Source: Escherichia coli (lineage in GTDB: Bacteria; Pseudomonadota; Gammaproteobacteria; Enterobacterales; Enterobacteriaceae). Taken from it: a stretch of 64,000 bases of DNA. The stretch lies in assembly GCF_013122565.1 (NCBI RefSeq), contig NZ_CP053258.1, one strand, 5' to 3'. The translations under genes were made by a program, and so were the position numbers. Shown piece after piece: positions 31,858 to 50,186 of this stretch. The notes under the pieces were generated by a model that worked only from the letters and a program-made list of their open reading frames with translations, was not told the DNA's origin and did not search any database. Position 1 is the stretch's first letter. Each line of letters opens with the position of its first letter.

Positions 31858-31911
31858 CTGTCGCTATATCTAAATGAATTTATAACGAGACTACTGTCAG
31901 GCAATTCAATA

Positions 31912-31944
31912 AATAATGGCGTTGAAGATGTCAACGCCATTATT
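31912..31944. terminator. bidirectional rho-independent terminator between AraC-family gene and eaeH
   Basis: Perfect 14-bp stem aataatggcgttga/tcaacgccattatt, 5-nt loop, T-rich flanks on both strands. Confidence 0.7.
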
Positions 31945-31979
31945 GTTTATTAGAATGCTACTTTCATATCCTTAAAATA

Positions 31980-34900
31980 TTATTTAGCCGCTTCTTCTCC
32001 CTTTGCCGTATCTTCTGCCACGGCGGTAATGGTCACCGTCACTGGCTTCATTTCGTACCCGCCATAGGTCAGGGCGTTAAATGTGAACGTATAGACACCA
32101 GGCTTGCTGGTACTAAATGTACGCGTGATTTTTCCGCTCACGAAATGGTCATTTTTCGACGGCAGGAACTGATAATCCTTCTCCGTCACCCCTTCCGGCG
32201 TCTGAATGTCGACCCACATATTCCCCCCAACGGGGTTGTTTGCCGACATCAGTGTCACCTCCAGCTTCGCAGTCGATTTCCCATCCGCCACCAGAGATTG
32301 CACATCAGATGATGCGGTGAGTACCGCATTTTTATCATCCGCGACGAATTTAGATTCGGCAGTTTTCGTCGATACCTGACCGTTGTTCTGACTCACTTGC
32401 GCCGTGAGTGTATATGTCGCCGCAACAGTAGTGGTAGCGGTGAAAATAGCCTGCCCTTGCTCATTCGTTGTCGCAGTGCCATTCGGTTCCAGGTTTAACG
32501 AAGCCGGGCTGGCAGTCAGCGTCACTTCGCTATCTTTCAACAGGTTGTTATTGGCATCAGTCACCGTAACTTTATACGTTTGTTTGGCTTTGCCGTCCGC
32601 CAGCGCATAGTTGCCAATCACCTCAATACCGGAGACGGTTGCGGTAGCCTTATCGGCTACAAACGTTATAGTCTGCGTATTCGAAGGCTGGCTATTCCCT
32701 GCCGATGCCGTGATCTCATACGTTCCGGCAGTCACTGAAACCACCTGCAACTCTGCTTTCCCCTCATCGTTGGCTTTCACCCAGACATTATCGCCTGTAA
32801 GCGGCTTGACACCCCGGGGCAGATTAAAGGTCACCAGGCTCCCTGGAACAGGGTTACCATTTTTATCCTCAACGGTCGCCGTCAGCGTAAAGGCATCTTT
32901 GCCGTTTGCCACTTTTTGAACGGCGGTGTCTACCTGCAGGTTTGCCTGACCGGTGCTGGCATCCGCGTTGAATTTCACCGTGACCGTCTTCTGAGCACCA
33001 TTCACCGAAGCGGAAATATTGTGTTCTCCCGCAACCGTTGACATAAGCTCAATGTCCACTTTCCCTGCCGCATTGGTTGTTACTGTATTCCCCGTCTTGC
33101 TGGTCACACCCTGCGGTAAAGTCAGCGTAACTTCTTGCCCCTGCAACGGGTTACCATAGCTGTCCACGACGGTCAGGGTTATCTGGTTAGCAGACTGTCC
33201 ATTAGCCAGTTGGTTATTAACCTTCACTGTCATATCACGAATATCAGCCTGAGAAGCGTCCCCTGCAACGTTCAGCACCAGTGGCTGAGCAACAGCATTT
33301 TGGCCGTTCACTCGCGGCATCACAGACAACTGACCCGCAGCCGATCCCAGCGTTAAGGTCGCCACGTAGACCCCATTACCTTTCTCTGTCCAGTTTCCTG
33401 CTGAAGGACGCTCACTCCCCGTGCTGGCGGCACCGCTAAACACTGGTGCATCTGGCTTCAGCCCGGTGACCGGGTTCCCGTACGCATCCTTCACGGTGAA
33501 GGTGAGTTCCGTCGTCGTTTTGACGGTCGGAGCCTTATTGTCCGCAACAAGCGTAGAGTTCGCTGATGACATCTCTCCGGCGATGACCGTCAACTGCGCG
33601 GCTTCGGTGGCTGCTGGCTGGCCGTTGAAGAGCGGCATGACACGAAGCTCGCCCGTCTTTCCGCCTGTAGTCAACGTAGCAACATAGGAACCGTCACCTT
33701 TTTCGGTCCAACTGGAAACGGTCGCCCCTTCAGAGGCGGTCCCCGTCAAACTTGCCGACAACGCAAGACCACTGATAGCGTTGCCATGCGCATCTTTCGC
33801 CACCAGCATCACGGTTGTGCTTTCGCCGGCTTTTACGTGATCTTCTGCGACAGAGACTTTCGACTGGTTTGAAGATAACGCATCAGCCACCACGGTTACT
33901 TTTGCCGCATTTGCTGCCGCATCCTGTCCATTTAGCTTCGGCATAACTTCTAATTCACCCGCCGTAGAGCCGAGAGTAATCTGCGCAGTCCACGTCCCAT
34001 CACCATTATTTGTCCAGCCCGATGCCGTAGAACCTACAGCAGCGGCACCCGCTAATGACGGCGCTTCCGGCGTGAGGCTGGTCACAGGGTTGTCATAGGC
34101 ATCTTTTACCGTCCAGATTGCCGTAACTGTACCCCCAACCACCGGTTTATCAGGATTCAGGGTGATGGACGAATGTGCTGCATCAAGCGGCCCGGCAACA
34201 AACTTCAGCGTTTGTTGTAATGTGCCCAGCTGATACTGCTCGCTGAAGGCACGCACAACAACATTTCCTGCGCGAGTCGAAGAAACCGTAGCGCTGTAAA
34301 CCCCTGGTTTTATTTCCGAAATGGCACCAACGGTAACACCATTAATGTCTTGCGGAACAAGTCGCAGGCGGCTGGCTTCTCCCGTCACCGGATTACCCTC
34401 GGAGTCCACCGCAGTCAACGTCAACGTATAGGCTTGCTGACCATCAGCAACCACGTCACCTGACGGCTCGTTAGCGCTCAGGGTGGAGTTTGCCACATCC
34501 ATCATCGTGGCCCGCAGTTCTGCAGTGACGGTTTTGCTCATGCCATCAACGCTAACAGTAATCGTTGCCTCACCTGACTGCGTTCCGGTAGTAAAGACAG
34601 ACTGATACACCCCTGCTTCAGTTTCGGTGAACTCACCCAGTGTTGGCTTTGCCTGTGATTTAGTGGACTTCAGGGAACGAGTCACAATATTTCCAGCCGG
34701 TTTGAAGGCTAGTTCAGTCTTGATCTGATCTTTCATGCCCGTGACTGGCTGGCCCTCGGCGTCGCGCAGAGACAGCACCAGCGGTCTTTGCTCATTACCG
34801 TTAGCAAGCATTTGAATACGGCTCTGACCGTCAAGCGTTAACGCCGTGCGATCGGCACTCATACCTGCTCCGGTAATGACCACCTCTGTCTGCACGCGTT

Positions 34901-36233
34901 TTGAGGCATTGCCTTTGTTATCGTAGGCAACCGCAGAAATCGCATAATAATTGTCTTTGCCTGCCTGGTAAGCCGGGAGCGTCACTTGCCACTGATTACC
35001 CTGCCCCGTAATTTTTCCGCCTGCGGCCAGCAAAGACGGCGCTTCCCATTGAACATTTTTCAGACCGTGAGTTGCTTTACTCACCACAAGCCCCAGGGAA
35101 ACCGTCTGCCCGCCCTTGCCTTCAATACGTTCAGGCAGAGCAATACGGATCACTTCAGATTTGCGGTACTCAAGAACGATGTTGTTATTACGCTCAACCA
35201 GGTCATAGCGGCTGCCTGCCAGCATTCGACGCTCGCGAATGCTGTCTGTATCGAGTTGTTTTTGCAGAGGTTCGCCAATCCGATAATTAACTTCCAGGCC
35301 AAAGCGAGTGTCATTCTCACCACTCTTGCCCTGCTTATGCCCGGCACTCAGGGTCAGAAGAGGCACTGGCGTATAGGTCACCTCGGCAGAAATAGCATGC
35401 GGGTCTTTCTGGCGTTTATCTTTACCAAACAGCCCGACTTCATCGCCATAATACTGTTCATACATCAGGCTTGCGCCAAGCTGCGGCCAGGCGGGTAAAT
35501 AGCCCTCAGCACGAATATCCCAGCCATTCGCCGGGCGTTCCTGATAATCCTCAACATCCGGCGATTTTTTCCAGCCAGAAGCCCGGATATAACCATTGGC
35601 GCTCAGTTTCAAATAATCACGCCAGTATTCCGCACCAACACCAATGCGGGTATGACTACGGGATAAATCATGGTCGATAAAGGTGTTCACCCCCGCCATC
35701 CAGTCATTTCCTGAAAAATGACGCCAGCCAAAACCAATATTTGACTGAGTGCGATCATCTGTACGATGTATTGCCCCCTGAGTGAACAACATATTTGTCG
35801 GCGTATCATAAATAGGATAAAGCATTTCCAGAGAAGAATCCTTCAGCGAGAAATCTTTATCGACATTGAGTTTGACGCGCGCAGTACCGTATTTCCCGAG
35901 CCACTCCTGTATTTCCTGGTTAGCTTTAGCGGTGGCCATTCCGGTAATAAAGTTACGTGTCGCATCGCTATCTGGCTGACTGCTTAAAAAATTCCCAGCA
36001 TTTGCGGCAAACGACGCGACATTTTTCTCCACATTATTATCAGCAGCTACTGTGGTATTTTCCATGCTCAACCGTGGCTGAACCGCATGCTGCGCGCGTG
36101 CCGCCATTACTGGGGTAAAGGTGACCGCGAGTGGAAAAAGAACCTGAACAGAGATATTTGCCCACGCCACACAGCGGGCCAGAACTGAATAACGAAATCG
36201 TGGTTGTTTATGACCTGTTTTATAACGCGACAT
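31980..36233 (-). CDS. eaeH: intimin/invasin-family outer-membrane adhesin, full length (EaeH/FdeC)
   Basis: 1417-aa ORF; N-terminal beta-barrel region followed by many tandem Ig-like repeats; truncated pseudogene in K-12 as I recall. Confidence 0.85.
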   Translation of the reverse strand: MSRYKTGHKQPRFRYSVLARCVAWANISVQVLFPLAVTFTPVMAARAQHAVQPRLSMENTTVAADNNVEKNVASFAANAGNFLSSQPDSDATRNFITGMATAKANQEIQEWLGKYGTARVKLNVDKDFSLKDSSLEMLYPIYDTPTNMLFTQGAIHRTDDRTQSNIGFGWRHFSGNDWMAGVNTFIDHDLSRSHTRIGVGAEYWRDYLKLSANGYIRASGWKKSPDVEDYQERPANGWDIRAEGYLPAWPQLGASLMYEQYYGDEVGLFGKDKRQKDPHAISAEVTYTPVPLLTLSAGHKQGKSGENDTRFGLEVNYRIGEPLQKQLDTDSIRERRMLAGSRYDLVERNNNIVLEYRKSEVIRIALPERIEGKGGQTVSLGLVVSKATHGLKNVQWEAPSLLAAGGKITGQGNQWQVTLPAYQAGKDNYYAISAVAYDNKGNASKRVQTEVVITGAGMSADRTALTLDGQSRIQMLANGNEQRPLVLSLRDAEGQPVTGMKDQIKTELAFKPAGNIVTRSLKSTKSQAKPTLGEFTETEAGVYQSVFTTGTQSGEATITVSVDGMSKTVTAELRATMMDVANSTLSANEPSGDVVADGQQAYTLTLTAVDSEGNPVTGEASRLRLVPQDINGVTVGAISEIKPGVYSATVSSTRAGNVVVRAFSEQYQLGTLQQTLKFVAGPLDAAHSSITLNPDKPVVGGTVTAIWTVKDAYDNPVTSLTPEAPSLAGAAAVGSTASGWTNNGDGTWTAQITLGSTAGELEVMPKLNGQDAAANAAKVTVVADALSSNQSKVSVAEDHVKAGESTTVMLVAKDAHGNAISGLALSASLTGTASEGATVSSWTEKGDGSYVATLTTGGKTGELRVMPLFNGQPAATEAAQLTVIAGEMSSANSTLVADNKAPTVKTTTELTFTVKDAYGNPVTGLKPDAPVFSGAASTGSERPSAGNWTEKGNGVYVATLTLGSAAGQLSVMPRVNGQNAVAQPLVLNVAGDASQADIRDMTVKVNNQLANGQSANQITLTVVDSYGNPLQGQEVTLTLPQGVTSKTGNTVTTNAAGKVDIELMSTVAGEHNISASVNGAQKTVTVKFNADASTGQANLQVDTAVQKVANGKDAFTLTATVEDKNGNPVPGSLVTFNLPRGVKPLTGDNVWVKANDEGKAELQVVSVTAGTYEITASAGNSQPSNTQTITFVADKATATVSGIEVIGNYALADGKAKQTYKVTVTDANNNLLKDSEVTLTASPASLNLEPNGTATTNEQGQAIFTATTTVAATYTLTAQVSQNNGQVSTKTAESKFVADDKNAVLTASSDVQSLVADGKSTAKLEVTLMSANNPVGGNMWVDIQTPEGVTEKDYQFLPSKNDHFVSGKITRTFSTSKPGVYTFTFNALTYGGYEMKPVTVTITAVAEDTAKGEEAAK

Positions 36234-37128
36234 TGAGATAATTTCCTGATGAACGAATTAACGAACATATGCAGACACAAATAATGGCGTCTGCTTGTCA
36301 GAAAAACCGGGAATTTCCCGGTTTCCTTTTCCGCAGAAAAGGAAATACCTTTATGTAAGAAAGTGCACCGCCACCTAATATATTCAGTGTCTGTAGCCAC
36401 TCATCAGGTGGTTGGGCGCGGGATTATATTTTTATTTATGGGTGAAAATTTAGCTTTTTGTGCAAGTCATTAAAGTATGATTGTCACACTATATTCTCCG
36501 TTTAAATACAGTGAATATATTTTTATTTAAAGTGAATAATGATGTTCTGCTTTTAGTGACCACGATTAGAATTACGCCTAAAGAGGTATATGTTCATAAT
36601 AAGCCAATATTTTTTAAGGGTATTTATTTTCTTTCATCGGGCTATAAAATCCCGAAATATCGGATTTGCACAGCACCGATCAACAGTGCTTAAGCAGGCG
36701 GGTGCTGTTTACGACCAGGATAGTTAAGATAATATCCGGGAAAAGTTGGACATCAGCCCTGTAGAACCTGAATAAGTTCGCCTGACTTTACATAATCATG
36801 AACCGCGTTTTCGGAGCCACAGGCGGTACCAAAGTAAAAGGCTGGTGATGGGTACCTTTAGCCGAATCAGGTAGAAGTCATGAAATTCCCCCCTTAATCC
36901 ACAGCGTGTTCCTGAACTAACCATTCCGGATAGACTATTGGATCAAATTCAGGCATCGAAAGGAACAGGCTGTTTCCCGTTAAGGGATTAATTATCTATT
37001 TTCCTTAATAGATAACTGATGTAATACCTCTATTCAAATTTGTGATACATGTCAAAAAATTGGTTGACCAAACTCGTTATTTATATAAGGACACTTACGA
37101 AGTGCATTTTTAAAGCGAGGAAGTACCA

Positions 37129-37230
37129 ATGAAAGAGAATAAAGTACAGCAAATCAGTCATAAACTGATCAATATCGTTGTTTTTGTTGCAATAGTAGAA
37201 TACGCCTATTTATTTCTCCATTTCTATTAA
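37129..37230 (+). CDS. ykgR: small membrane protein YkgR (33 aa)
   Basis: ATG preceded by GAGGAAG; MKENKVQQISHKLINIVVFVAIVEYAYLFLHFY; not in the ORF track (too short). Confidence 0.6.
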   Translation: MKENKVQQISHKLINIVVFVAIVEYAYLFLHFY

Positions 37231-37290
37231 TAACGGCAATAAACTGTTCACTTTAGTGATATTTAAAATATGCATCCTTTTTCTGCTTTT

Positions 37291-37317
37291 CAAGCTGTTC
37301 AAGCTGTTCAAGCTGTT
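37291..37317. repeat. perfect 9-bp tandem repeat x3 (caagctgtt)
   Basis: caagctgtt caagctgtt caagctgtt followed by partial cag; intergenic. Confidence 0.9.
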
Positions 37318-37657
37318 CAGCGGCGTAAGAGAAAGTATTGAGTATGAATTCGACGATTTAACCATATCTGTTTGATTGGTAATCATCCGTGATTAATGCT
37401 GGTCTATTGATTACGCCAGCATTAACCGCTTAGGGATGTATTCTTCCTGTTCATATACAGCCCTCGAAAAAGAGAGCAAATAAAACTGTGTCCAATATTA
37501 CTCTACCACTCCAGACCGAAGTATCGGTAGAATTAGCAGAACGGCTGGTACAGTAGATTGGGATAGCGTCATTTGTCAGGCATTCCATTGCCATAATAAT
37601 AATTATGAATCAATAGACGTGCTTCTTGATCATGTCTTAAAAATTATACCACGAGCC

Positions 37658-37888
37658 TTATGAAGCATCATTTTTACTGACTGGTGTTAACTTTGCTATC
37701 ATATAAACTCTGTTCTTAAAAAACGCGCCCAGAATTTTATATGATTTTCCTTGTTTTTCTGCCTGTAAAGAAATTTCTTTTTCAGTGCTGTCAATGGTTG
37801 AACCGACGGCAGTAATCGTTTTGGCGACGCTACTGAAAGATAATAAAGACAGTGTCATCACAACAATTAAAGAACAGATAGTATTCAT
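37658..37888 (-). CDS. small secreted protein, DUF1471-like
   Basis: Start at MNTICSLIVVMTLSLLSFSSVA (76 aa); mature part resembles the YahO/BhsA family (TIDSTEKEISLQAEKQGKSYKILG). Confidence 0.5.
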   Translation of the reverse strand: MNTICSLIVVMTLSLLSFSSVAKTITAVGSTIDSTEKEISLQAEKQGKSYKILGAFFKNRVYMIAKLTPVSKNDAS

Positions 37889-38103
37889 GCTAATTCTCCT
37901 GACAATTGAGAGGATGAGTTTTATATACATAGATATTAAACATGAGTCATATTTACTCCAAGAGAAAATACCCCTTCTGTAATTAAACCTTCATCTCCTT
38001 CGGAATGAGTAATGCATAATATAATGCATCTTGCTATGCAAAACAGTGGATATAAATTTTCCTCCCGACCTATTTAATAAAACGTGAATGTAAAAGTTAT
38101 TCT

Positions 38104-38841
38104 TCAGTTTGCAGATGCAGTGGGTCTGATGGTAATTTCGGTTGTATCAACGCTTTCGGGCGATTCAATAATATGCCTTACAGCACGGGCAATATCCGCA
38201 GGTTGAAGTGCAACAGAACGGTAGACATCCATTGCCTTCATGGTTTCCACATGGGTAATGGTTGAAGCCAGTTCACTTTCGACAACGCCAGGATTTACGC
38301 ATGTCACACGGATTTTCGAGCTTTCCTGCCGTAAGCCATCAGAAATAGCCCTTACTGCAAATTTTGATGCGCAATAGACTGCGCCTGTGGGCACAACAGA
38401 AAGGGCACCAATAGAACCAAGATTGATTATCTGACCGGAACCCTGTGCTTCCATCACCGGAAGTACAGCGCCAATTCCCCAAAGTACACCTTTGATATTC
38501 ACGTCTATAGTGAGCTCCCATTCATCCTGTTTTCCTGCTGCAAGCGGTGAAAGCGGCATAACGCCCGCATTATTGATAAGAACATCAACTCGCCCCCAGC
38601 TATCCAGCGCTGCTTGCACGAAATCGGCCATGGACTGTCGGTTTGTGACATCCAACTCCCGCGCTTTAGCAATTCCTCCTGCGCGGCAGATTTCGGTTGC
38701 AATGGCTTCGATACGCTCAACTCTGCGTGCGCCCAGTAAAACCTTTGCACCTGTCGTTCCCAGCGCTCTGGCAATACCTTCCCCAATACCACTTGATGCG
38801 CCGGTAATTAATATGACCTTATCCATTACGTTCTCCTTCAA
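38104..38841 (-). CDS. short-chain dehydrogenase/reductase (SDR)
   Basis: 245-aa ORF; Rossmann motif TGASSGIG, NNAG motif, catalytic YxxxK (YCASK); true start may be MDKVILITG. Confidence 0.85.
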   Translation of the reverse strand: MKENVMDKVILITGASSGIGEGIARALGTTGAKVLLGARRVERIEAIATEICRAGGIAKARELDVTNRQSMADFVQAALDSWGRVDVLINNAGVMPLSPLAAGKQDEWELTIDVNIKGVLWGIGAVLPVMEAQGSGQIINLGSIGALSVVPTGAVYCASKFAVRAISDGLRQESSKIRVTCVNPGVVESELASTITHVETMKAMDVYRSVALQPADIARAVRHIIESPESVDTTEITIRPTASAN

Positions 38842-38924
38842 ATGTGTTCGGAGAGAGAATAGAACTTTATGATTGGTTCCAGTATCCTGCTTTCAATGTA
38901 CTCAGTGGTTAGCGGCATTAAACA

Positions 38925-39824
38925 ATGAAAATCGATCTTAATCTTTTACCCATTTTTATCGCGGTAGCAGAAGAGAGTAATTTTAGTAAAGCCGCCGCAC
39001 GACTGGGCGTTACCCGTTCAGCGGTCAGTCAGGGAATAAGACGCCTTGAAGATGCATTCGGGACAATGCTTGTAATGCGGACCACGCGCTCAGTTAATTT
39101 GACGGAAGCGGGAGAACGGCTGCATAAATCGTTGTCATTACCTTTATCCGGTATTGAGGCAACGTTCGAAGAGATGGTTTCTGACCATGTGCCACGCGGA
39201 CTTCTCAGAATCGCGGTGACGTCGATAGCAGAAGAATTTCTTTCAGGTCCGCTAATCGCTTCGTTTGCAGCTGCCAATCCAGCCGTTACGCTTGATATTG
39301 TTGTAACGGATGAGGAATTCGATATCGTGGCCGCAGGTTACGATGCTGGCGTAAGGCTCGGAGAGGTCATTGAAAAAGACATGATTGCTGTGCCCATTAC
39401 CGGCAGGCAGCGTGAAATGGTCGTTGCCTCTCCCTCCTATCTCGCAGCCAACAGCACTCCTGTTCATCCGCGTGAACTTGTGAATCATAAGTGTATCGGC
39501 TGGCGTCAGTCCCCGGAGGTTGCGCCTTATCGCTGGCCATTTGAAGAAAACGGGAGAGCTTTCGACCTTGCGATTGAACCGCAGATTACGACTAATGATC
39601 TGCGTCTGATGTTGCGGCTGGCTCTTGCCGGTGGAGGAATAACAATTGCCACTCAGGAAACTTTCAGGCCGTATATTGAAAGCGGTAAGCTTGTATCGCT
39701 GCTTGATGACTTTCTTCCACAATTTCCGGGCTTCTATCTGTATTTCCCACAGCGTCGCAATATTGCACCAAAGCTCCGCGCCCTGATTGACCACGTCAAA
39801 GAATGGCGGCAGCAATTGACTTAA
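38925..39824 (+). CDS. LysR-type transcriptional regulator
   Basis: 299 aa; N-terminal HTH (FSKAAARLGVTRSAVSQGIRRLE); divergent from the SDR gene. Confidence 0.85.
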   Translation: MKIDLNLLPIFIAVAEESNFSKAAARLGVTRSAVSQGIRRLEDAFGTMLVMRTTRSVNLTEAGERLHKSLSLPLSGIEATFEEMVSDHVPRGLLRIAVTSIAEEFLSGPLIASFAAANPAVTLDIVVTDEEFDIVAAGYDAGVRLGEVIEKDMIAVPITGRQREMVVASPSYLAANSTPVHPRELVNHKCIGWRQSPEVAPYRWPFEENGRAFDLAIEPQITTNDLRLMLRLALAGGGITIATQETFRPYIESGKLVSLLDDFLPQFPGFYLYFPQRRNIAPKLRALIDHVKEWRQQLT

Positions 39825-40389
39825 ATGTCTGCACCTGCACGGCCTGATGTCAGAACAATATTTTGATGAATTGCCTACACCAGCTAGCCGCAGCACATTC
39901 TTGCATACGACATGTCTGCGGTTTACTTTTCACGCTCAAACCTTATGGTAAAGCACAATAATGATCCCCAGGGCTATATAAATGTTTTGTAATTAGCTCT
40001 TAAGACGAACTTTTCAGACTAACTTCTTTATTCATCCATAATGAAGACTGTATTAGGAAGTTCTCTAAAAACATGAATAACCACTGTCTTACAATGAATT
40101 TAGTTTACAGAACATTCTTATTGAGAAAAAACAACACTGTACACACCCAATAATATAGAAATGTAAATTTAAGTTTATTAATCTTTTGAATTATAATCAT
40201 AACTTTCTGTTAACCATTAGAATATCAATAGATTATAATCACTGAACACACATTTTTATAATTGCTATTCCCACACTCAAAATGCGCATCCCAATATCTT
40301 ATTTGACACTTTGTTGTTTGCTACTAGAGTTAATTGGGTGCTGACAAGGCACATGTTATTTACAAATTGGAAATCAGAGGAGAAATGAT

Positions 40390-40572
40390 ATGACCGAACA
40401 TCGTGGCGGTGCAGGTAATTTCGCTGAAGATCGACAAAAAGCTTCTGACGCAGGTCGTAAAGGTGGCCAACAAAGTGGTGGTAATTTTAAAAACGATCCA
40501 CAAAGAGCATCAGAAGCAGGGAAAAAAGGTGGTCAGAATAGCCATGGCGGCGGTCGTAAATCTGACTCTTAA
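40390..40572 (+). CDS. KGG-repeat stress protein (YciG/YmdF family)
   Basis: 60 aa with repeated GG[NQ]..KKGGQ motifs. Confidence 0.8.
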   Translation: MTEHRGGAGNFAEDRQKASDAGRKGGQQSGGNFKNDPQRASEAGKKGGQNSHGGGRKSDS

Positions 40573-40645
40573 TTTTTCATCTCCCTAAATTCGTGAATAA
40601 CTGCAGCTAACTGCGAGCCTACGGGCTCGCAGGGACAACTCTGGA

Positions 40646-41152
40646 GTGATTATGCAAATTAAATCTGTTGAAGATATCTTCATCCATTTATTATCTGACA
40701 CATATAGTGCTGAGAAACAACTAACCAAGGCACTATCTAAACTTACTCGCTCCGCATATAGTGATAAATTAACCGCTGCTTTTCAGTCACATCTTGATGA
40801 GACACATGGTCAAATTGAACGCATCGACCAGGTTGTTGATTCTGAAGATGGTATTAAACTAAAAAGAATTAAGTGCGCCGCAATGGAAGGCCTTATTGAA
40901 GAGGCGAATGAGGTAATTGAAAGCACTGACAAAAATGAAATACGTGATGCTGCGTTGATTGCAGCAGCACAAAAAGTAGAACACTATGAAATTGCCAGTT
41001 ATGGCACCCTGGTAACACTTGCTGAGCAATTAGGATTTAAAAAAGCGGCTCAACTCCTGAAAGAAACTCTGGAAGAGGAAAAAGCTACTGATGTCAAATT
41101 AACAGACCTGGCATTTAATAATGTTAATAAAAAAGCTCAGGATAACTCCTGA
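40646..41152 (+). CDS. DUF892 ferritin-like protein (YciE/YciF family)
   Basis: 168 aa ...VEDIFIHLLSDTYSAEKQLTKAL...KVEHYEIASYGTL... Confidence 0.8.
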   Translation: MIMQIKSVEDIFIHLLSDTYSAEKQLTKALSKLTRSAYSDKLTAAFQSHLDETHGQIERIDQVVDSEDGIKLKRIKCAAMEGLIEEANEVIESTDKNEIRDAALIAAAQKVEHYEIASYGTLVTLAEQLGFKKAAQLLKETLEEEKATDVKLTDLAFNNVNKKAQDNS

Positions 41153-41186
41153 ACTATAGACTTCACTTTTTTAGGAGAAATATATT

Positions 41187-41693
41187 ATGAATAGCATTGA
41201 ACATTATCATGACTGGCTTCGTGACGCACACGCAATGGAGAAACAAGCGGAATCAATGTTGGAGTCTATGGCCAGCAGGATAGAAAACTATCCTGAGTTA
41301 CGTTCCAGAATTGAGCAGCACATTAGCGAAACAAAGAACCAGCTTTCACAGCTTGAAAGCATACTTGATCGTAATAATATTTCTCGCTCTGTCATTAAAG
41401 ACTCTATGAGTAAAATGGCCGCGTTTGGGCAATCTATTGGTGGAATTTTTCCATCTGATGAAATTGTCAAAGGTTCGATCAGTGGCTATGTTTTTGAACA
41501 ATTTGAAATTGCGTGCTACACATCTCTTCTCGCAGCAGCCAAAAATGCGGGTGATACAGCTTCAGTACCAATTATTGAAGCAATTCTTAATGAAGAAAAA
41601 CAAATGGCTGAATGGCTTCTTAACCATATTCCAGACACCACTGAGCAGTTTATGGTCAGATCTGAAATTGATGGCGCTGAAGCAAAAAAATAA
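41187..41693 (+). CDS. DUF892 ferritin-like protein (YciE/YciF family), second copy
   Basis: 168 aa MNSIEHYHDWLRDAHAMEKQAESML...FEIACYTSLLAAAKNAGD... Confidence 0.8.
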   Translation: MNSIEHYHDWLRDAHAMEKQAESMLESMASRIENYPELRSRIEQHISETKNQLSQLESILDRNNISRSVIKDSMSKMAAFGQSIGGIFPSDEIVKGSISGYVFEQFEIACYTSLLAAAKNAGDTASVPIIEAILNEEKQMAEWLLNHIPDTTEQFMVRSEIDGAEAKK

Positions 41694-41711
41694 TTCTTTA
41701 GAGGAGGAATT

Positions 41712-42602
41712 ATGTTTAGACACGTGAAAAAACTTCAATATACAGTACGTGTAAGTGAACCAAACCCAGGCTTAGCTAATCTACTTTTAGAACAATTCGG
41801 CGGCCCACAGGGTGAGCTTGCAGCTGCATGCCGATACTTCACTCAAGGTTTAAGTGATGAAGATGCAGGTCGAAGGGATATGCTGATGGACATAGCAACA
41901 GAAGAACTAAGCCATCTCGAAATTATTGGTTCTCTTGTTGGTATGCTCAACAAAGGTGCAAAAGGAGCACTCGCTGAAGGAACTGAGAATGAAGCGGAGC
42001 TTTACCGTTCCTTAACTCAAAATGGCAATGACAGCCATATAACTTCTCTTCTCTACGGAGGAGGCCCAGCATTAACTAATTCAGCTGGAGTACCCTGGAC
42101 TGCAGCTTATGTTGATACTATTGGCGAAGTCACAGCCGATCTTCGTTCAAATATTGCAGCTGAAGCTCGTGCAAAGATCATTTACGAGCGTCTCATTAAT
42201 GTTACTGATGATCCTGGAGTGAAAGACACTCTGGCATTTTTAATGACCAGGGAAGCAGCACATATGCTTTCTTTTGAAAAAGCATTACATTCAATTCGTA
42301 ACACTTTTCCACCAGGAAAATTACCACCGATTGAGAAGTACAAAAACGTATATTACAACATGTCAGAAGGTGAAGATGTCAGAGGTAGTTGGAACAGTGA
42401 TGAAAACTTTGATTATGTTTCCGATCCAGTTCCAGCTGTTGACGGTGGGGATGGGAAGGCCTCGATAATTCTTTCGACCAAGCAAGAAGCTATGATAAAA
42501 GCTATGGCAACAAGGTTGAAATCCCATGAAGATATCAATCCTGTCACTGGCGCTGAGCTTGCTGAAGGAGAGCCACAAACAAAGGTAAATAGTAAAAACT
42601 AA
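41712..42602 (+). CDS. manganese catalase (KatN-like)
   Basis: 296 aa; ...LAAACRYFTQG...EELSHLEIIGSLV... and ...REAAHMLSFEKAL... typical of di-Mn catalases. Confidence 0.75.
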   Translation: MFRHVKKLQYTVRVSEPNPGLANLLLEQFGGPQGELAAACRYFTQGLSDEDAGRRDMLMDIATEELSHLEIIGSLVGMLNKGAKGALAEGTENEAELYRSLTQNGNDSHITSLLYGGGPALTNSAGVPWTAAYVDTIGEVTADLRSNIAAEARAKIIYERLINVTDDPGVKDTLAFLMTREAAHMLSFEKALHSIRNTFPPGKLPPIEKYKNVYYNMSEGEDVRGSWNSDENFDYVSDPVPAVDGGDGKASIILSTKQEAMIKAMATRLKSHEDINPVTGAELAEGEPQTKVNSKN

Positions 42603-42692
42603 TTATCTTCTGGTATTTAGCTATCTCTCATAAATTTTAATGGCCGCAGAGATATCCTAAGCTCTAGCCACTGAAAATACATTTATATTTCG

Positions 42693-42725
42693 AAGCCCGC
42701 GATATTATAAGCGGGCTTTTATTTT
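42693..42725 (+). terminator. rho-independent terminator after the catalase gene
   Basis: Stem aagcccgc/gcgggctt (8 bp) followed by TTATTTT. Confidence 0.7.
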
Positions 42726-42832
42726 AACCTTCTGGTATTACAGGCCACTCAATATCCGGTGCTACTGATGGCTCAACACGATTCAACAACATCCGATATG
42801 TCTTCCATGCGGCCATTCAACATTTCGCAGAA

Positions 42833-43718
42833 ATGCAACTAAGAGACATTACTGAATCAAAAATTTATTCAGCAATGCAGAAAATGACGAACCGGCGTCA
42901 TGAGGAAAACTGGAAACTCAGGGCAGAAGCATGCAGAAAAAAGGGAAACCTGTTCCAGAATACACGCCAAACCCAGCGTCTGTTGCAACGAAGGCTACGC
43001 ATCTTTCATTTATAAAAGCCCTGCTAAGAGCCGCAGAGCGTGAATAGAAAATGCTGGATAAGGCACCAATTATTAAAGTGCCTCAACCGAAGAATAAACG
43101 GATCCGCTGGCTGGAACCTCATGAAGCACAAAGGCTGATTGATGAATGTCCGGATCCATTAAAGTCTGTTGTTGAATTTGCACTGGCAACAGGTTTAAGA
43201 CGCTCGAACATCATCAACCTTGAATGGCAACAAATAGACATGCAGCGCCGGGTGGCCTGGATAAACCCGGAAGAGAGTAAATCAAACTGCGCGATTTGCG
43301 TTGCGCTGAATGATACTGCATGTCGAGTATTGAAAAAACAAATCGGGAATCACACCGTTGGGTATTTGTGTAAAAGGAAAGCTGTACAAAACCAGACGGA
43401 ACGAAAGCGCCAACAGTCAGGAAGATGCAGTATGACGCAAACACAGCCAGGAAAACGGCGCTGAGACGAGCTGGTATTGATGATTTCAGATTTCACGACT
43501 TGAGACACACCTGGGCAAGTTGGCTGGTTCAAGCCGGAGTCCCGTTGTCAGTGTTACAGGAAATGGGAGGCTGGGAGTCTATCGAAATGGTTCGACAATA
43601 TGCTCACCTCGCACCTAATCACCTTACCGAACACGCACGGCAAATAGACTCGATCCTAAACCCATCGGTCCCAAATTTGTCCCAGTCAAAAAATAAGGAA
43701 GGTACTAACGATGTGTAA
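42833..43718 (+). pseudogene. decayed tyrosine recombinase (phage/island integrase) beside thrW
   Basis: Three consecutive short ORFs in different frames; second and third carry integrase catalytic boxes ([18 protein letters not shown]; [12 protein letters not shown]...MVRQYAHL); N-terminal half absent or degenerate. Confidence 0.75.
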
Positions 43719-43732
43719 CTTATTGATTTAAA

Positions 43733-43808
43733 TGGTGCCGATAAGAGGAGTCGAACCTCCGACCTTCGCATTACGAATGCGCTGCTCTACCAACTGAGCT
43801 ATATCGGC
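43733..43808 (-). tRNA. thrW: tRNA-Thr (anticodon CGU)
   Basis: Minus strand GCCGATATAGCTCAGTTGGTAGAGCAGCGCATTCGTAATGCGAAGGTCGGAGGTTCGACTCCTCTTATCGGCACCA; full cloverleaf, anticodon loop TTCGTAA, encoded CCA. Confidence 0.92.
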
Positions 43809-43922: not shown

Positions 43923-45176
43923 TTACGCACGAATGGTGTAATCACCAATGCCGATCCACTTGTAAGTGGTCAGTGCTTCCAGCCCCATTGGGCCACGCGC
44001 GTGGAGTTTTTGTGTGCTTACCGCCACTTCCGCACCCAGACCAAACTGGCCGCCGTCGGTAAAACGCGTAGAGGCGTTAACGTAAACAGCGGACGAATCC
44101 ACTTCGTTAACAAAACGCTGGGCGTTGCGCATATCGCGGGTCAGGATCGCATCGGAGTGTTGTGTGCCGTGTTCACGAATATGGGCGATGGCATCGTCAA
44201 GATCGCTGACGATTTTGACGTTCAAATCTAATGACAGAAACTCATCGTCATACTCTTCGGCTTTAACCGCCACCACCTTCGCGGGGCCTGTCTGCAACTG
44301 CGCCAGCGCAGCAGCATCTGCGTGTAACGTCACGCCGCTTTCCGCCATTTGCTTGCTTAATGCGGGCAGGAAGCTATCGGCGATGTTTTTATTTACCAGC
44401 AACGTTTCTACCGTATTACATGTGCTCGGACGCTGAGTTTTCGCGTTGACGATCACTTTTAATGCTTCAGCGATCTCTGCACTTTCATCAACGTAAATAT
44501 GGCATACGCCTATACCACCAGTGATCACCGGGATTGTCGACTGTTCGCGGCACAGTTTATGCAAACCAGCGCCACCACGCGGGATCAGCATGTCGATGTA
44601 TTTATCCATACGCAGCATTTCACTGACCAGCGCACGGTCAGGATTATCAATCGCCTGCACGGCACCCGCCGGTAAGCCACAGGATTTCAGGGCGTCCTGA
44701 ATCACCGCCACCGTTGCCGCGTTAGTGCGACAGGTTTCTTTGCCACCACGCAGGATCACCGCATTACCGGTTTTCAGGCACAGCGAAGCGACATCAACCG
44801 TCACGTTCGGGCGCGCTTCATAAATCACGCCAATAACCCCCAGCGGTACGCGACGACGCTCAAGACGCAGGCCGCTGTCCAGTACGCCGCCATCGATTAC
44901 CTGCCCCACCGGATCGGCGAGATTGCACACCTGGCGCACATCGTCGGCAATGCCTTTCAGCCGTGCGGGCGTCAGTGCCAGACGGTCAAGCATCGCTTCG
45001 CTAAGGCCATTGGCACGCGCGTCAGCAACATCCTGGGCGTTAGCGTTGAGGATGATTTCGCTTTGTGCTTCCAGTTCATCGGCGATTTTTTCCAGCACGC
45101 GATTTTTTTCGCGGCTGGAGAGTTGCGCTAATTTATACGAGGCTTGCTTCGCGGCAATGCCCATTTGTTCCAGCAT
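43923..45176 (-). CDS. proA: gamma-glutamyl phosphate reductase
   Basis: 417-aa [41 protein letters not shown]... Confidence 0.93.
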
Positions 45177-45187
45177 CAGCCTGCTCC

Positions 45188-46291
45188 TTAACGGGTAATC
45201 ATGTCATCACGGTGAACGGCAACCGGGCCGTATTCATATCCCAGTATTGCATCAATTTCTTGCGAGTGGTGTCCGGCAATACGGCGTAATGCATCGCTGT
45301 TGTAACGACTGACGCCGTGAGCGATATCGCGACCTTCGAGGTTGCAAATGCGGATGACTTCACCACGCGAGAAATTGCCAGTCACGCTTTTAATGCCTTT
45401 CGGCAACAGGGAGCTGCCGCGTTCAAGAATGGCGGCAGTTGCCCCTTCATCTACCGTGATTTCACCCGCCGGCGGCGCACCGAAAATCCAGCGTTTACGG
45501 TTTTCAAGCGGAGTCGCCTGGGCATGGAACAACGTACCGACGGAAATGCCTTCCATCACATCACCAATAACGCCCGGCTTGCTGCCCGCGGCAATAATGG
45601 TGTCGATACCCGCACGGCAAGCCACGTCTGCGGCCTGCAATTTGGTACTCATGCCGCCAGTTCCGAGGCCTGAAACGCTGTCACCGGCAATCGCGCGCAG
45701 TGCGTCATCAATGCCGTAAACATCTTTAATCAGTTCTGCCTGCGGATTGCTGCGCGGGTCAGCGGTATACAAACCTTTTTGATCGGTCAGCAGCAACAGT
45801 TTATCGGCACCCGCCAGAATCGCCGCCAGCGCAGAAAGGTTATCGTTATCGCCGACCTTAATCTCTGCCGTAGCGACAGCATCGTTCTCATTGATTACCG
45901 GAACGATATTGTTATCGAGCAACGCTCGCAGGGTGTCGCGGGCGTTCAGGAAGCGTTCACGGTCTTCCATATCAGCACGGGTCAGCAGCATCTGCCCGAC
46001 GTGAATGCCATAAATCGAAAACAGCTGTTCCCACAGTTGAATCAGTCGACTCTGCCCTACCGCCGCCAGCAGTTGTTTCGAGGCGATAGTCGCTGGCAGT
46101 TCCGGGTAACCCAGGTGCTCACGTCCGGCGGCGATCGCGCCCGACGTCACAATAACAATCCGATGCCCGGCGGCATGTAACTGCGCGCACTGGCGAACAA
46201 GTTCAACGATATGGGCACGGTTCAGGCGGCGCGATCCGCCTGTTAGCACACTGGTGCCGAGTTTTACCACCAGCGTCTGGCTGTCACTCAT
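45188..46291 (-). CDS. proB: glutamate 5-kinase
   Basis: Start at [19 protein letters not shown] (367 aa); ORF track starts 29 codons upstream. Confidence 0.92.
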
Positions 46292-46479
46292 GATTCTCTG
46301 CCATTCAATTTTAGGAAAAATGATATCAAACGAACGTTTTAGCAGGACTGTCGTCGGTTGCCAACCATCTGCGAGCAAAGCATGGCGTTTTGTTGCGCGG
46401 GATCAGCAAGCGTAGCGGCAGTTGTTTACGCTTTTATTACAGATTTAATAAATTACCACATTTTCAGAATATTATTAAT

Positions 46480-46497
46480 CTGTAATATATCTTTAAC
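46480..46497 (+). promoter_or_regulatory. Pho box (PhoB binding site) of phoE promoter
   Basis: CTGTAATATATCTTTAAC, about 80 nt upstream of phoE start. Confidence 0.65.
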
Positions 46498-46578
46498 AAT
46501 CTCAGGTTAAAAACTTTCCTGTTTTCAACGGGACTCTCCCGCTGAATATTCGCGCGTTAATTAAAATCAGGAATGAAA

Positions 46579-47634
46579 ATGAAAAAGAGCACTCTGGCAT
46601 TAGTGGTGATGGGCATTGTGGCATCTGCATCCATACAGGCCGCAGAAATATATAACAAAGATGGTAATAAACTGGATGTCTATGGCAAAGTTAAAGCCAT
46701 GCATTATATGAGTGATAATGACAGTAAAGATGGCGACCAGAGTTATATCCGTTTTGGTTTTAAAGGTGAAACACAAATTAACGATCAACTGACTGGTTAT
46801 GGTAGGTGGGAAGCAGAGTTTGCCGGTAATAAAGCGGAGAGTGATACTGCACAGCAAAAAACACGTCTCGCTTTTGCCGGATTGAAATATAAAGATTTGG
46901 GTTCTTTCGATTATGGTCGTAACCTGGGCGCGTTGTATGACGTGGAAGCCTGGACCGATATGTTCCCGGAATTTGGTGGCGACTCCTCCGCACAGACCGA
47001 CAACTTTATGACCAAACGCGCCAGCGGTCTGGCGACGTATCGGAACACCGACTTCTTCGGCGTTATCGATGGCCTGAACTTAACCCTGCAATATCAAGGG
47101 AAAAACGAAAACCGCGACGTTAAAAAGCAAAACGGCGATGGCTTCGGCACGTCATTGACATATGACTTTGGCGGCAGCGATTTCGCCATTAGTGGGGCCT
47201 ATACCAACTCAGATCGCACCAACGAGCAGAACCTGCAAAGCCGTGGCACAGGCAAGCGTGCAGAAGCATGGGCAACAGGTCTGAAATACGATGCCAATAA
47301 TATTTATCTGGCAACTTTCTATTCTGAAACACGCAAAATGACGCCAATAACTGGCGGCTTTGCCAATAAGACACAGAACTTTGAAGCGGTCGCTCAATAC
47401 CAGTTTGACTTTGGTCTGCGTCCATCGCTGGGTTATGTCTTATCGAAAGGGAAAGATATTGAAGGTATCGGTGATGAAGATCTGGTCAATTATATCGATG
47501 TTGGTGCTACGTATTATTTCAACAAAAATATGTCAGCCTTTGTTGATTATAAAATCAACCAACTGGATAGCGATAACAAATTGAATATTAATAATGATGA
47601 TATTGTCGCGGTTGGCATGACCTATCAGTTTTAA
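46579..47634 (+). CDS. phoE: phosphate-starvation porin PhoE
   Basis: Start at [21 protein letters not shown] (351 aa); ends ...VGMTYQF. Confidence 0.93.
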
Positions 47635-47672
47635 TGGATATTGCCGGATGTGATGCATCCGGCACATTTCAC

Positions 47673-48131
<459 letters not shown>

Positions 48132-49376
48132 TTAACACAAACGTTTTTCGATCCAGTCGGTGATTTCCTGAAGACCTTTGTCAAAATTCCGATACACCGG
48201 GTTAAATGGGATCTCTAATAATTTACCGTCAGCAGATGATGAGGTGATTAAGCGTGAGTCCTCTTCCGGGCTGAACGGATCGTTCTTCCAGTAGCCTGAT
48301 AACATTGGCGTTGGGCAGCGACGTCCCAGCAATCCTTGCACTTTTAATGAATAGCGATTCAGCTCCACGCGCAACGCTTCGTCGGAAGCATCATGCATCC
48401 CCAAACGACTCGCCAGAACGTCAAGATACATTTCCGGCACCTGTTGCTGGCACTTAAAATCACTCAACAGGGTATGAACTACCGGACCAAGACAGGCAAC
48501 CGCTTTCAGACGCGGCGATTCAAGGTATGCCAGACGCACTGCAACGTTAGCGCCGAAACGGAAACCAAAGGCCGCGACGCGAGTGTGATCCACCCACGGT
48601 ACGTTAGGCAGCGCCTTTAAGACGTGCTGATGCAACAGGCTGGAGTCCTGGGTGAGCTTCCATTTTGAAGAAAAGCCCACCGACGGCATATCAATAGTCA
48701 GCATCGCAATGCCGCGCGGCGCAAAATAACGTTCATACAGGCTGTAATAGTCCGTCTGCATCGCATCCAGACCACCACACATTAATACTGTCGGGAACGG
48801 GCCATCGCCTTTCGGCATATGCAAAAAGCCGGTGATGGGCGCACCGCCGGGTACGGTAAACTCCATCTGCCGCATCGTGCCCGGCAGACGCTGAGCGGCC
48901 TCTTCATAGGCGCGGTTTGACAAAGCCTGCGCTTGCTCAGCCAGGTCATCTCCTTTCAGATGAGGATAGGCGGCAATGTTGTACAACGTAGCCGCATGAA
49001 GCCAGTGTCGACCACTGAGTTGCGGATCTTCTTCCGCACAGGCTTTTTGTTGCCACACCATCGCCTGGGTGGCCCACTCATAAATCCAGTTGCCGCCGCG
49101 GTAGCCAATCACCGTATCGTATAAATCATCGTCGGTACGTTCGGCATCGCTCATCACAATACGGGCCTGGACGTCGAGGATTTCACGTGGGTCAATGCCG
49201 CGCCAGATCCACATCAGACGGTTAATCATGCGATACCAGTGAGGGATGGTTTTACCATCAAGGGCCGACTGCACAGGCGGTTGTGCGCCGTGATTAAAGC
49301 GGCGGACTAGCGTCGAGGTTTCAGGATGTTTAAAGCGGGGTTTGAACAGGGTTTCGCTCAGGTTTGCCTGTGTCAT
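48132..49376 (-). CDS. frsA: esterase FrsA (alpha/beta hydrolase)
   Basis: 414-aa [30 protein letters not shown]... Confidence 0.9.
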
Positions 49377-49467
49377 GGATGCAGCCTCCAGAATACTTAC
49401 TGGAAACTATTGTAACCTGCCTGAAGTTAAAAAGAACAACGCCCGGCAGTGCCAGGCGTTGAAAAGA

Positions 49468-49926
49468 TTAGCGACCGGAGATTGGCGGGACGAATACGAC
49501 GCCCATATCCCACGGCTGTTCGATCCAGGTATCTTGTGGGATATCAACAACATAATCATCAACCAGCGGACGACCAGCCGGTTTTGCGAAGATGGTGACA
49601 AAGTGCGCTTTTGGATACATTTCGCGGATTGCCACTGCAGTACCACCGGTATCCACCAGGTCATCAATTACGATGAAGCCTTCGCCATCGCCTTCTGCGC
49701 GTTTCAGCACTTTAAGCTCGCGCTGGTTGTCGTGATCGTAGCTGGAAATACAAACGGTATCGACATGACGAATACCCAGTTCACGCGCCAGTAACGCACC
49801 CGGTACCAGACCGCCACGGCTTACGGCAATAATGCCTTTCCATTGTTCAGAAGGCATCAGTCGGCTTGCGAGTTTACGTGCATGGATCTGCAACATGTCC
49901 CAGGTGACGATGTATTTTTCGCTCAT
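49468..49926 (-). CDS. gpt: xanthine-guanine phosphoribosyltransferase
   Basis: 152-aa [42 protein letters not shown]... Confidence 0.93.
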
Positions 49927-50186
49927 GTGAAGTGTCCCAGCCTGTTTATCTACGGCTTAAAAAGTGTTCGAGGGGAAAATAGGTTGCGCGAGATTATAGA
50001 GATCTGGCGCACTAAAAACCAGTATTTCACATGAGTCCGCGTCTTTTTACGCACTGCCTCTCCCTGACGCGGGATAAAGTGGTATTCTCAAACATATCTC
50101 GCAAGCCTGTCTTGTGTTGACAACATTTTCTGCTAACCCTGTGACCTGCAATACTGTTTTGCGGGTGATCGACAAGGAGACTTAAC

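Follow-up and report, generated by a model that had tools for sequence, protein, structure and literature searches.

A 3.9-kb stump of a lambdoid prophage at thrW of Escherichia coli that probably kept a katN stress operon as cargo

The locus considered here is a stress operon of the yciG-yciF-yciE-katN type beside the threonine tRNA gene thrW, in a 64,000-nucleotide stretch of Escherichia coli contig NZ_CP053258.1 (hereafter the window, meaning the whole stretch). Its closest parallels are the katN operon of cryptic prophage CP-933X in enterohaemorrhagic E. coli (EHEC) O157:H7, which is the same cargo, and the SHI-O islets of Shigella, which occupy the same site. In the EHEC operon (Z1924-Z1921, O-island 52), the genes Z1922, Z1923, and Z1924 were RpoS-dependent by 35-, 64-, and 137-fold, respectively (PMC2907692). 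Z1921 encodes KatN, a manganese catalase; its transcription needs RpoS, is promoted by OxyR, and was raised more than 450-fold in an hns mutant, and the protein was reported to be secreted via the type VI secretion system (PMC5363993). The yciGFE-katN operon of Salmonella and the yciGFE operon of K-12 are chromosomal sigma-S operons next to ompW, as far as they are summarized in PMC5437024 and PMC5363993, which cite Robbe-Saule 2001 and Beraud 2010. The SHI-O islets of Shigella and enteroinvasive E. coli are left over from serotype-converting Sf phages at thrW/proAB, of which only gtrABV has been kept (PMC7545054), and P22-like phages of the ST64T integrase group also integrate in thrW (PMC2629481).

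The segment 39877–43732 (3.86 kb) of the window was read, with a probability of roughly 85%, as the stump of a lambdoid prophage that integrated at thrW and kept its katN cargo, the LysR/SDR flank being excluded (SDR, short-chain dehydrogenase/reductase). The locus is a further instance of a well-known kind, prophage decay, and its cargo operon was already known. The original prediction had listed thrW, integrase fragments, four operon genes, a terminator, a LysR/SDR pair, a hairpin, and a small open reading frame (ORF), all of which were present where it had placed them, and had joined them as one domesticated island with a decayed mobility gene at 37658–43808. The decay was borne out, while a tail-fibre assembly (tfa) fragment pointed to a collapsed lambdoid prophage in place of a generic integrase island. 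The span did not hold, as 37162–39875 occurs beside an empty thrW in strain O145:H28, and only 39877–43732 is the insert. The parts of the element that define its origin were as follows.

43733..43808, minus strand: thrW, tRNA-Thr(CGT), whose 3′ end is the attachment site on the attL side (ARAGORN; Rfam tRNA, 71 bits)
42816..43718, plus strand: integrase pseudogene of the SfII/SfIV/SfV/P22 type (alignment to an intact 372-residue homologue; PHROG integrase families)
42724..42816, minus strand: 3′ fragment of a lambda-type tfa gene, last 30 codons and stop (match to the C-terminus of O157 Tfa; PHROG families; RefSeq annotation)
39876..39877, no strand: left junction between backbone (...GATGAATTGCC) and phage-derived DNA (TACACCAGCTAGCCGCAGC...) (alignment with empty sites and other module copies)

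When the locus was compared with the EHEC operon, the same four genes, gene order, promoter block, hairpin, terminator, and convergent tfa were found. The four proteins YciG, YciF, YciE, and KatN were 98, 97, 98, and 99% identical to the O157 copies, respectively, with a DNA identity of 92%. In EHEC most of the lambdoid prophage around the operon, a cryptic one in the ompT region, is still there, whereas the prophage of the window has collapsed to 3.9 kb at thrW. The operons of Salmonella and K-12 shared the gene order, the promoter block, and the yciG–yciF hairpin, and KatN of the window was 84% identical to that of Salmonella. In contrast to these operons, the copy in the window is phage-borne, AT-rich, and away from trpA-ompW, with 73% DNA identity to native E. 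coli yciGFE; in addition, the Salmonella hairpin is followed by UAUUUU, whereas that of the module has no U-tract. The SHI-O islets, compared by their published description, lie at the same site beside proA, where the window has an integrase of the SfII/SfIV/SfV family. They show the same outcome, a stump of a few kilobases that keeps lysogenic-conversion cargo and has lost the phage functions. Their cargo is a set of O-antigen glucosylation genes, whereas that of the window is a stress and catalase operon from the end of a lambda-type prophage that carries the tail-fibre genes. Phage morons are self-contained cargo units of promoter, gene, and terminator that lambdoid phages carry at the end near the tail-fibre genes or near att. 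The module likewise has its own promoter, terminator, and insulating hairpin, has a deviant G+C content, and occurs in several phages and at several att sites. Its cargo is under purifying selection while the integrase decays, as in domesticated defective prophages; the window differs from these in nothing essential and is a four-gene example.

The integrase remnant was compared with the intact 372-residue integrase of strain Res13-Lact-PEB01-20, to which it was 97% identical in DNA. The remnant lacked codons 1–71 and started at nt 215 (codon 72) of the intact gene. It contained 1-nt deletions at integrase nt 340 and 753, and in-frame stop codons at nt 445 (TGG to TAG) and nt 772 (TAC to TAA). 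The truncation, two frameshifts, and two stops agree with the earlier view that thrW is an integration site and that the integrase next to it has decayed. The deletion at nt 753, the stop at nt 772, and the truncation point were common to the window and two E. coli genomes, wlxctx60 and 6EVA, whereas the deletion at nt 340 and the stop at nt 445 were private to the window.

The integrase stop codon was located 14 nt from the 3′ end of the tRNA gene, as in the intact Res13 prophage. In that prophage the integrase is convergent with thrW and adjoins an excisionase-like gene and early genes of the yfdT/R/Q type. The intact Res13 protein matched the integrases of the Shigella phages SfI, SfII, and SfIV and of Escherichia phage phi458 at 99.2–99.7% identity (99.5–99.7% for SfII, SfIV, and phi458), that of SfV at 98%, and those of the P22-like Salmonella phages ST64T, L, and BTP1 at about 90%. 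As in a prophage, a tyrosine integrase of a known phage family adjoined its cognate tRNA site and was convergent with it. Genome counts here and below refer to 5426 complete E. coli genomes, in which the integrase or the module was scored as present when at least 80% of the query length was matched. The integrase segment was present in 1272 of them, which marks thrW as much used by integrases of this type.

The T-stem of thrW contained a compensatory change at positions 43745 and 43759, a G-C pair in place of the U-A pair of most E. coli, both positions being inside the 46-nt attachment core. The exact 91-bp thrW allele was found in 161 of 5386 E. coli records, and the change may be the imprint of a phage attP copy. 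In the Rfam scan, thrW alone reached the gathering score, and matches to IS009, CssrB, and Plastid-ycf2 were far below threshold.

The 93-nt tfa fragment is located between the catalase terminator and the integrase remnant, and was about 68% identical to lambda Tfa. RefSeq annotates an equivalent tfa fragment in wlxctx60 and 6EVA. Homology to tfa of O157 ended at 42810, and homology to the integrase began at 42816; therefore, a single deletion junction was placed at 42811–42815, which fused the last 30 tfa codons to integrase codon 72. The fragment was contiguous with the module, at a spacing equal to that of intact prophages, and pointed away from attL, which is the prophage order and orientation for a phage structural sequence. 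Lambdoid prophages are arranged as attL, int (directed to attL), intervening genes, stf, tfa (directed to attR), cargo, and attR, and the order in the window was the same minus everything from int to tfa. The orientation of every piece matched this map, with the integrase directed towards attL, tfa directed away from it, and the cargo convergent with tfa.

On the left side, backbone matches stopped at window position 39875 in the genome comparison; strains with an empty site were colinear with the window through ...GATGAATTGCC (39876) and divergent beyond it. The other module copies gained homology to the window within a few nt of 39877. At the unoccupied thrW of O145:H28 RM13514 and FDAARGOS_1288, the LysR stop codon was 127 bp from thrW. 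The empty site contained 77 bp from the left-junction point to the tRNA end, of which only the last 17–20 bp resembled the attL flank of the window. The G+C profile also separated the element from its flank, with 39% (39.4%) in the module versus 49% in the SDR-LysR region and 50.5% in the whole window.

No repeat of the thrW 3′ end was found in the window with a 25-mer allowing up to 3 mismatches. A blastn comparison of 43690–43808 with 30000–43689 gave no att repeat, its best match being 12 of 13 bases with an E value of 2.2. That match (39815–39827) was rejected as attR, as it lies inside the LysR stop region and is present in the empty-site strains too. The original prediction had seen no direct repeat and had left the left boundary undefined; the repeat is indeed absent, but the boundary could be placed at 39876/39877 by means of the empty sites. 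Because the left junction has no copy of the tRNA 3′ end, and given the spacing of the empty sites, attR and about 60–77 bp of chromosomal flank are judged to have been lost. On these grounds the element is predicted to be unable to excise or move.

A second structured signal was found at this edge.

39886..39932, plus strand: AT-rich leader and, at the module's left edge, a terminator-like hairpin followed by U-rich sequence (fold −17 kcal/mol, z −3.6)

It was kept in the O157, Ec-U9-1, and O39 copies, and would be expected to block transcripts that run on from the LysR gene. The left edge of the module coincided within a few nt where the window joins the chromosome and where O157 joins a methyltransferase gene (O157 record ~7994–8010). 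The Ec-U9-1 and O39 copies have at least 50 bp more upstream sequence in common (records ~11990).

The genes to the left of the junction were the following.

38925..39824, plus strand: LysR-family regulator, the backbone neighbour of thrW (NCBIfam LysR-family matches)
38104..38826, minus strand: SDR-family oxidoreductase, divergent from the LysR gene, backbone (NCBIfam SDR matches)
37658..37888, minus strand: small secreted-type ORF of 76 residues from MNTICSL (90 residues from the ATG at 37930), backbone (signal-peptide-like N-terminus)

The stretch 37162–39875 was found beside the unoccupied thrW of O145:H28 RM13514 with an identity of about 95%, and a decayed version of the LysR side beside the unoccupied thrW of FDAARGOS_1288. 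The complete SDR-LysR pair was present in 388 genomes and any part of it in 3301, mostly the 3′ end of the LysR gene only. The window has an intact LysR gene, of which K-12 yagP (NC_000913.3 297381–297719), a fragment annotated with a LysR substrate-binding domain, is a 3′ remnant. In K-12 yagP lies at the distal end of CP4-6, the expected position of the former thrW flank, and is a relic of the LysR gene by which thrW was originally flanked. The ratio of nonsynonymous to synonymous substitution rates (dN/dS) of the LysR gene was 0.115 against O145, in agreement with purifying selection. To judge from these comparisons, the small ORF, the SDR gene, and the LysR gene are old chromosomal backbone outside the element. 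The small ORF had been described as a DUF1471-like secreted protein. Its signal-peptide-like N-terminus was found, but the DUF1471/BhsA label was weak (Pfam YdgH_BhsA-like E 0.073; NCBIfam BhsA E 3.8e-4, 21 bits against a cut-off of 90), and the ORF is annotated as hypothetical in wlxctx60, O145:H28 RM13514, and 6EVA.

The cargo was recognized as follows.

40390..40572, plus strand: yciG-like general stress protein with KGG repeats (con-10 family), 60 residues (Pfam KGG twice, E 4e-9 and 8.5e-8; 98% to O157)
40652..41152, plus strand: yciF-like ferritin-like DUF892 protein, 166 residues (PDB 2GS4 YciF, E 5e-81; RefSeq calls a 501-nt gene)
41187..41693, plus strand: yciE-like ferritin-like DUF892 protein, 168 residues (PDB 3OGH YciE, E 2e-96; Pfam DUF892 on an identical product)
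41712..42602, plus strand: katN, manganese catalase, 296 residues (NCBIfam ManCatBAC E 5e-49; PDB 6J42 and 1JKU; 99% to O157)
42692..42725, plus strand: intrinsic terminator of the operon with a 9-bp stem, 10-nt loop, and U-run (fold −16 kcal/mol, z −4.5)
40303..40330, plus strand: promoter candidate TTGACA-16 nt-TAGAGT (consensus scan; upstream alignment)

The module (39888–42810) was present in 380 of the complete genomes, mostly O157:H7, with an identity of about 92%. In all four contexts examined outside thrW it was located at the tail-fibre end of a lambdoid prophage, and in two of them it was convergent with an intact tfa. The O157:H7 module lies in the ompT region with J-lom-stf-tfa; the Ec-U9-1 module is the last piece before the bacterial flank of a prophage at the lambda bio-ybhB site; and the O39:NM module is at the yecD site, with IS256 and nleG genes between it and the tail-fibre genes. 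Full-length PHROG families exist for all four operon proteins.

Native yciGFE of E. coli is located between trpA and ompW, and no OmpW homologue was found near the module of the window. Because of the 73% identity and the position away from trpA-ompW, the module is a xenologue, not an orthologue, of native yciGFE. Among 100,044 species representatives, the closest chromosomal catalases were 84–87% identical (Kosakonia, Phytobacter, and Salmonella arizonae/diarizonae; the best, 87%, in Kosakonia and Phytobacter), and as to a chromosomal donor, no Escherichia representative carried a close copy of the module.

Two matches in the phage collection, PPompW and P-EibA, sit at the ends of prophage records beside chromosomal yciE. 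These lambdoid prophages at ompW (PPompW_132418 7884–8351; P-EibA) abut native yciE with their tail/cargo end, a geometry by which a yciGFE-katN block could be picked up through aberrant excision. As the origin of this module such a capture was set aside as speculative, as no relic of the 121-bp ompW duplication was found in the module and katN is beside ompW only in Salmonella.

In the history proposed for the locus, a lambdoid prophage would have integrated into the 3′ end of thrW by means of an SfII/SfIV/P22-type tyrosine integrase. One internal deletion would then have joined integrase codon 72 to the last 30 tfa codons and removed the phage between them, and a second event would have removed attR together with about 60–77 bp of chromosomal flank. 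The survivor would be the right-end cargo, yciG-yciF-yciE-katN, preceded by an insulating hairpin and a sigma-S-type promoter of its own and closed by a terminator. If it behaves like its EHEC orthologue, the operon may be silenced by H-NS on its AT-rich DNA and transcribed by RpoS-RNA polymerase in stationary phase or under stress, with the help of OxyR; its products would be a hydrophilin, two ferritin-like proteins, and a manganese catalase that removes H2O2.

Several observations weigh against this history. The direct repeats of attL and attR, which in relatives consist of a duplicated 46-nt core of the tRNA 3′ end, are absent from the window, and because attR is missing, integration by this integrase is deduced from position and homology only. 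A complete ancestor, which would be a thrW prophage that has this integrase and, at its opposite end, the katN module, was not found. No sequenced phage in the phage collection contained the whole module, partial matches being 75–79% identical. The integrase fragment was 97% identical to its E. coli homologues, whereas the module was 92% identical to the O157 copies, and the two parts may have different histories. Finally, control by RpoS, OxyR, and H-NS and the catalase activity were measured for the EHEC copy, not for this lineage.

The unequal divergence and the missing ancestor would suit a composite origin, in which the integrase stump and the tfa′-katN segment came from two prophages, either tandem or successive occupants of thrW or resident lambdoid prophages that recombined with each other, and were joined by illegitimate or homologous recombination. 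The integrase is 96–97% identical to E. coli homologues and the module only about 92% to all other E. coli copies, and thrW has been re-used repeatedly, with further elements beside the stump in 6 of 10 related contigs. This origin was nevertheless considered improbable, as a single integrated lambdoid prophage has its pieces in exactly this order and orientation, and one deletion is more parsimonious. A phage with this integrase and lambda-type tail genes exists, the viable lambdoid phage phi458, and lambdoid phages are mosaics, in which unequal divergence of modules is expected within a single phage.

The contiguity of all genes next to a tRNA gene and the terminal position of an integrase, together with the AT-rich stretch 36250–38250 in the G+C profile, would fit a single tRNA-associated island (37658–43732) that brought the integrase, stress operon, LysR/SDR pair, and small secreted protein together. 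This is very unlikely, as the small ORF, SDR, and LysR genes occur beside unoccupied thrW in O145:H28 and, decayed, in FDAARGOS_1288, and K-12 keeps the LysR 3′ end (yagP) beyond CP4-6. Backbone homology stops exactly at 39875/39876, the SDR-LysR G+C content is 49%, and no flanking repeat was found. Less credible still is an ancestral second native yciGFE-katN locus that lies near thrW by chance among unrelated phage-like debris, even though the same four genes are chromosomal in Salmonella, Enterobacter, Klebsiella, and Phytobacter. The operon is absent at thrW in 5424 of 5426 genomes, has a prophage tail-end context in every other genome examined, and is contiguous with a tfa fragment at the spacing of intact prophages; moreover, its G+C content is 39%, and the native E. 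coli yciGFE, only 73% identical, is at trpA-ompW. A single lambdoid prophage that collapsed at thrW is thus the preferred reading.

The four genes had been compared with the yciG-yciF-yciE-katN general stress module with its own terminator, which was confirmed by the Pfam, PDB, and NCBIfam matches and the terminator fold. Precomputed Pfam assignments on identical products in related contigs were KGG, DUF892 (twice), and Mn_catalase. The order of KGG protein, YciF, YciE, and Mn catalase on one strand with short spacers was also that of the loci in Salmonella, Enterobacter, Klebsiella, and Phytobacter. The yciF start codon was ATG at 40652, with an in-frame GTG at 40646. The terminator consisted of a G+C-rich 9-bp stem (42692–42719) followed by UUUUAUUUU. 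When KatN was aligned with the catalases of L. plantarum (1JKU) and Anabaena (6J42), the motifs GEL, EELSH, AAEA, and REAAH were kept at the Mn-ligand positions, the di-Mn ligand set being Glu, Glu-x-x-His, Glu, and His.

The promoter block was aligned with the upstream regions of yciG in O157, K-12, Salmonella, Enterobacter, and Klebsiella, in which ATTTGAC was invariant and CTAnnnTTAA was conserved. The block has a cytosine at −13 and TAA downstream of its −10 hexamer, both of which are typical of sigma-S promoters, and is a candidate sigma-S-type promoter of the operon. The 360 bp upstream had a G+C content of 33–36%, in keeping with the H-NS silencing that was measured for the EHEC copy. 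The description of an RpoS-type operon likewise agrees with the RpoS dependence shown experimentally for the 97–99% identical O157:H7 copy (PMC2907692; PMC5363993). The dN/dS values against O157 were 0.04–0.055 for all four cargo genes, which indicates that the cargo is under purifying selection while the integrase, with its lesions, decays. The earlier statement that the mobility gene had decayed and the cargo had been kept is in line with this difference.

The spacer between yciG and yciF contains a further signal.

40611..40632, plus strand: conserved intercistronic stem-loop of 9 bp with a UACG loop and no U-tract (RNA fold; alignment of 21 spacers)

The hairpin, CUGCGAGCC-UACG-GGCUCGCAG, has a perfect 9-bp stem, which starts 38 nt past the yciG stop codon and ends 19 nt ahead of the yciF start codon. 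An equivalent stem-loop was found in all 21 aligned yciG–yciF spacers, from the O157 module, native K-12, Salmonella, Leclercia, Lelliottia, Enterobacter, Klebsiella, and Phytobacter. In this alignment 99.5% of the cells were paired, compared with 27–39% in slid controls, and 4 of the 9 pairs had changed on both sides; the covariation score was reached by none of 500 shuffles. The core GCGnG/CnCGC was invariant, the loops were variable, and the outer pairs were compensatory. The conservation claimed for this hairpin was thus upheld (21/21 spacers, with compensatory changes), and the covariation argues that it is a conserved structured RNA element, real beyond chance.

No Rfam family covered the hairpin at E ≤ 1, and a literature search found no paper on it. 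It is tentatively proposed, with the odds somewhat against, that the hairpin represents an uncatalogued cis-acting RNA element common to the whole yciG–yciF family. Its most likely role would be at the level of the mRNA, where a decay barrier or leaky attenuator would keep the first cistron above the downstream three. The differential expression within the operon that the original prediction had suggested is a reasonable possibility. In EHEC arrays the first gene gave the highest signal, with Z1924 at 11.1 and Z1923 at 8.9 log2 (PMC2907692), values that are compatible with either a decay barrier or a leaky attenuator but are no proof. A short U-run follows the stem in Salmonella (UAUUUU), Leclercia (AAUUUUU), Klebsiella, and Phytobacter. 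A point against the proposed role in the window is that its stem is followed by GGACAACUCUGG, which is not a U-tract, and the hairpin was rejected as an intrinsic terminator for this reason. Intercistronic stem-loops that give the genes of an operon unequal expression are a general phenomenon (PMC5927463). Examples are leaky terminators and decay barriers such as the malE-malF repetitive extragenic palindromic (REP) sequence. The likeness consists in a stable G+C-rich hairpin just past the first cistron, whereas the hairpin of the window has no U-tract, no REP sequence, and no Rfam family. In the minimum free energy fold of the window spacer, a poorly conserved outer helix that flanks the hairpin took up some of the GGAG ahead of the yciF start, and could thereby link yciF translation to folding.

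The window is Escherichia coli-like chromosome, with proA-proB-phoE-crl-frsA-gpt-pepD at 43923–51644. The identity of this stretch to nearly all complete E. coli genomes was 97.3–98.7%, and in no genome did it reach 99%. When the thrW locus was compared across the complete genomes, the whole arrangement was found in only 2 of 5426, wlxctx60 (bear) and 6EVA (human), so that the content is not core, as the original prediction of an island required. The exact KatN protein was indexed in 500 blocks of public assemblies. All 10 contigs read with this protein had the context fdeC-ykgR-small ORF-SDR-LysR-module-tfa′-int′ and were about 96.6% identical to the window.

The divergence between the window and wlxctx60 was 1.7% in the module, 1.8% in the proA-frsA flank, and 2.6% in the integrase stump; the junctions were identical, and YciG, YciE, and KatN showed no amino-acid change. 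These values fit an old remnant whose cargo selection has retained, and which would have been passed on by vertical descent or transferred in one piece through recombination.

Re-use of thrW was seen in 6 of the 10 related contigs, in which a later element lies between the integrase stump and proA. The later insertions were a P4-like satellite (Ogr/Delta, DUF927), a P22-like prophage (tailspike, Mnt/Arc), or an island with a P4-type integrase (CbtA/CbeA). They left partial thrW copies of 46 nt or 17 nt, the 46-nt copies being in two related contigs.

Further to the left, two additional genes belong to the shared context.

31980..36233, minus strand: adhesin gene fdeC (ORF list; annotation in relatives)
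ykgR, absent from the gene calls of the window but annotated in wlxctx60 and 6EVA

The fdeC gene was only 94.3% identical to the copies in wlxctx60 and 6EVA, compared with 98.2% in the proA-frsA flank and 98.3% in the module. In O145:H28, the paoABCD region and further genes are located between the thrW flank and ykgR-fdeC, and a partial ykgR′ lies beside the small ORF. On the K-12 map, too, the paoABCD region and further genes separate the thrW flank from ykgR-fdeC. In the window, a complete ykgR leads straight to fdeC and the paoABCD block is missing (36234–37657), possibly through recombination between ykgR copies. A 9-bp tandem repeat, CAAGCTGTT, was present in three copies at 37291–37317, and in one copy at the same place in FDAARGOS_1288.

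The locus corrects the boundaries of the island and otherwise leaves current understanding unchanged. It offers a clean, datable example of a prophage whittled down to useful cargo, with two junctions and two integrase lesions common to lineages that have diverged by about 1.8%. Since their split, two more lesions have appeared in the integrase of the window, and three of the four cargo proteins have remained unchanged. The EHEC katN operon, which encodes a catalase reported to be secreted by the type VI secretion system and associated with virulence, has in this way become fixed in a non-O157 lineage without a functional phage. The yciG–yciF hairpin is the one feature that is possibly worth an experiment. 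If its proposed role is true, the hairpin could determine how much of the hydrophilin YciG is made relative to YciF, YciE, and KatN, whether as a site bound by a specific protein, as a conditional attenuator, or as a decay barrier.

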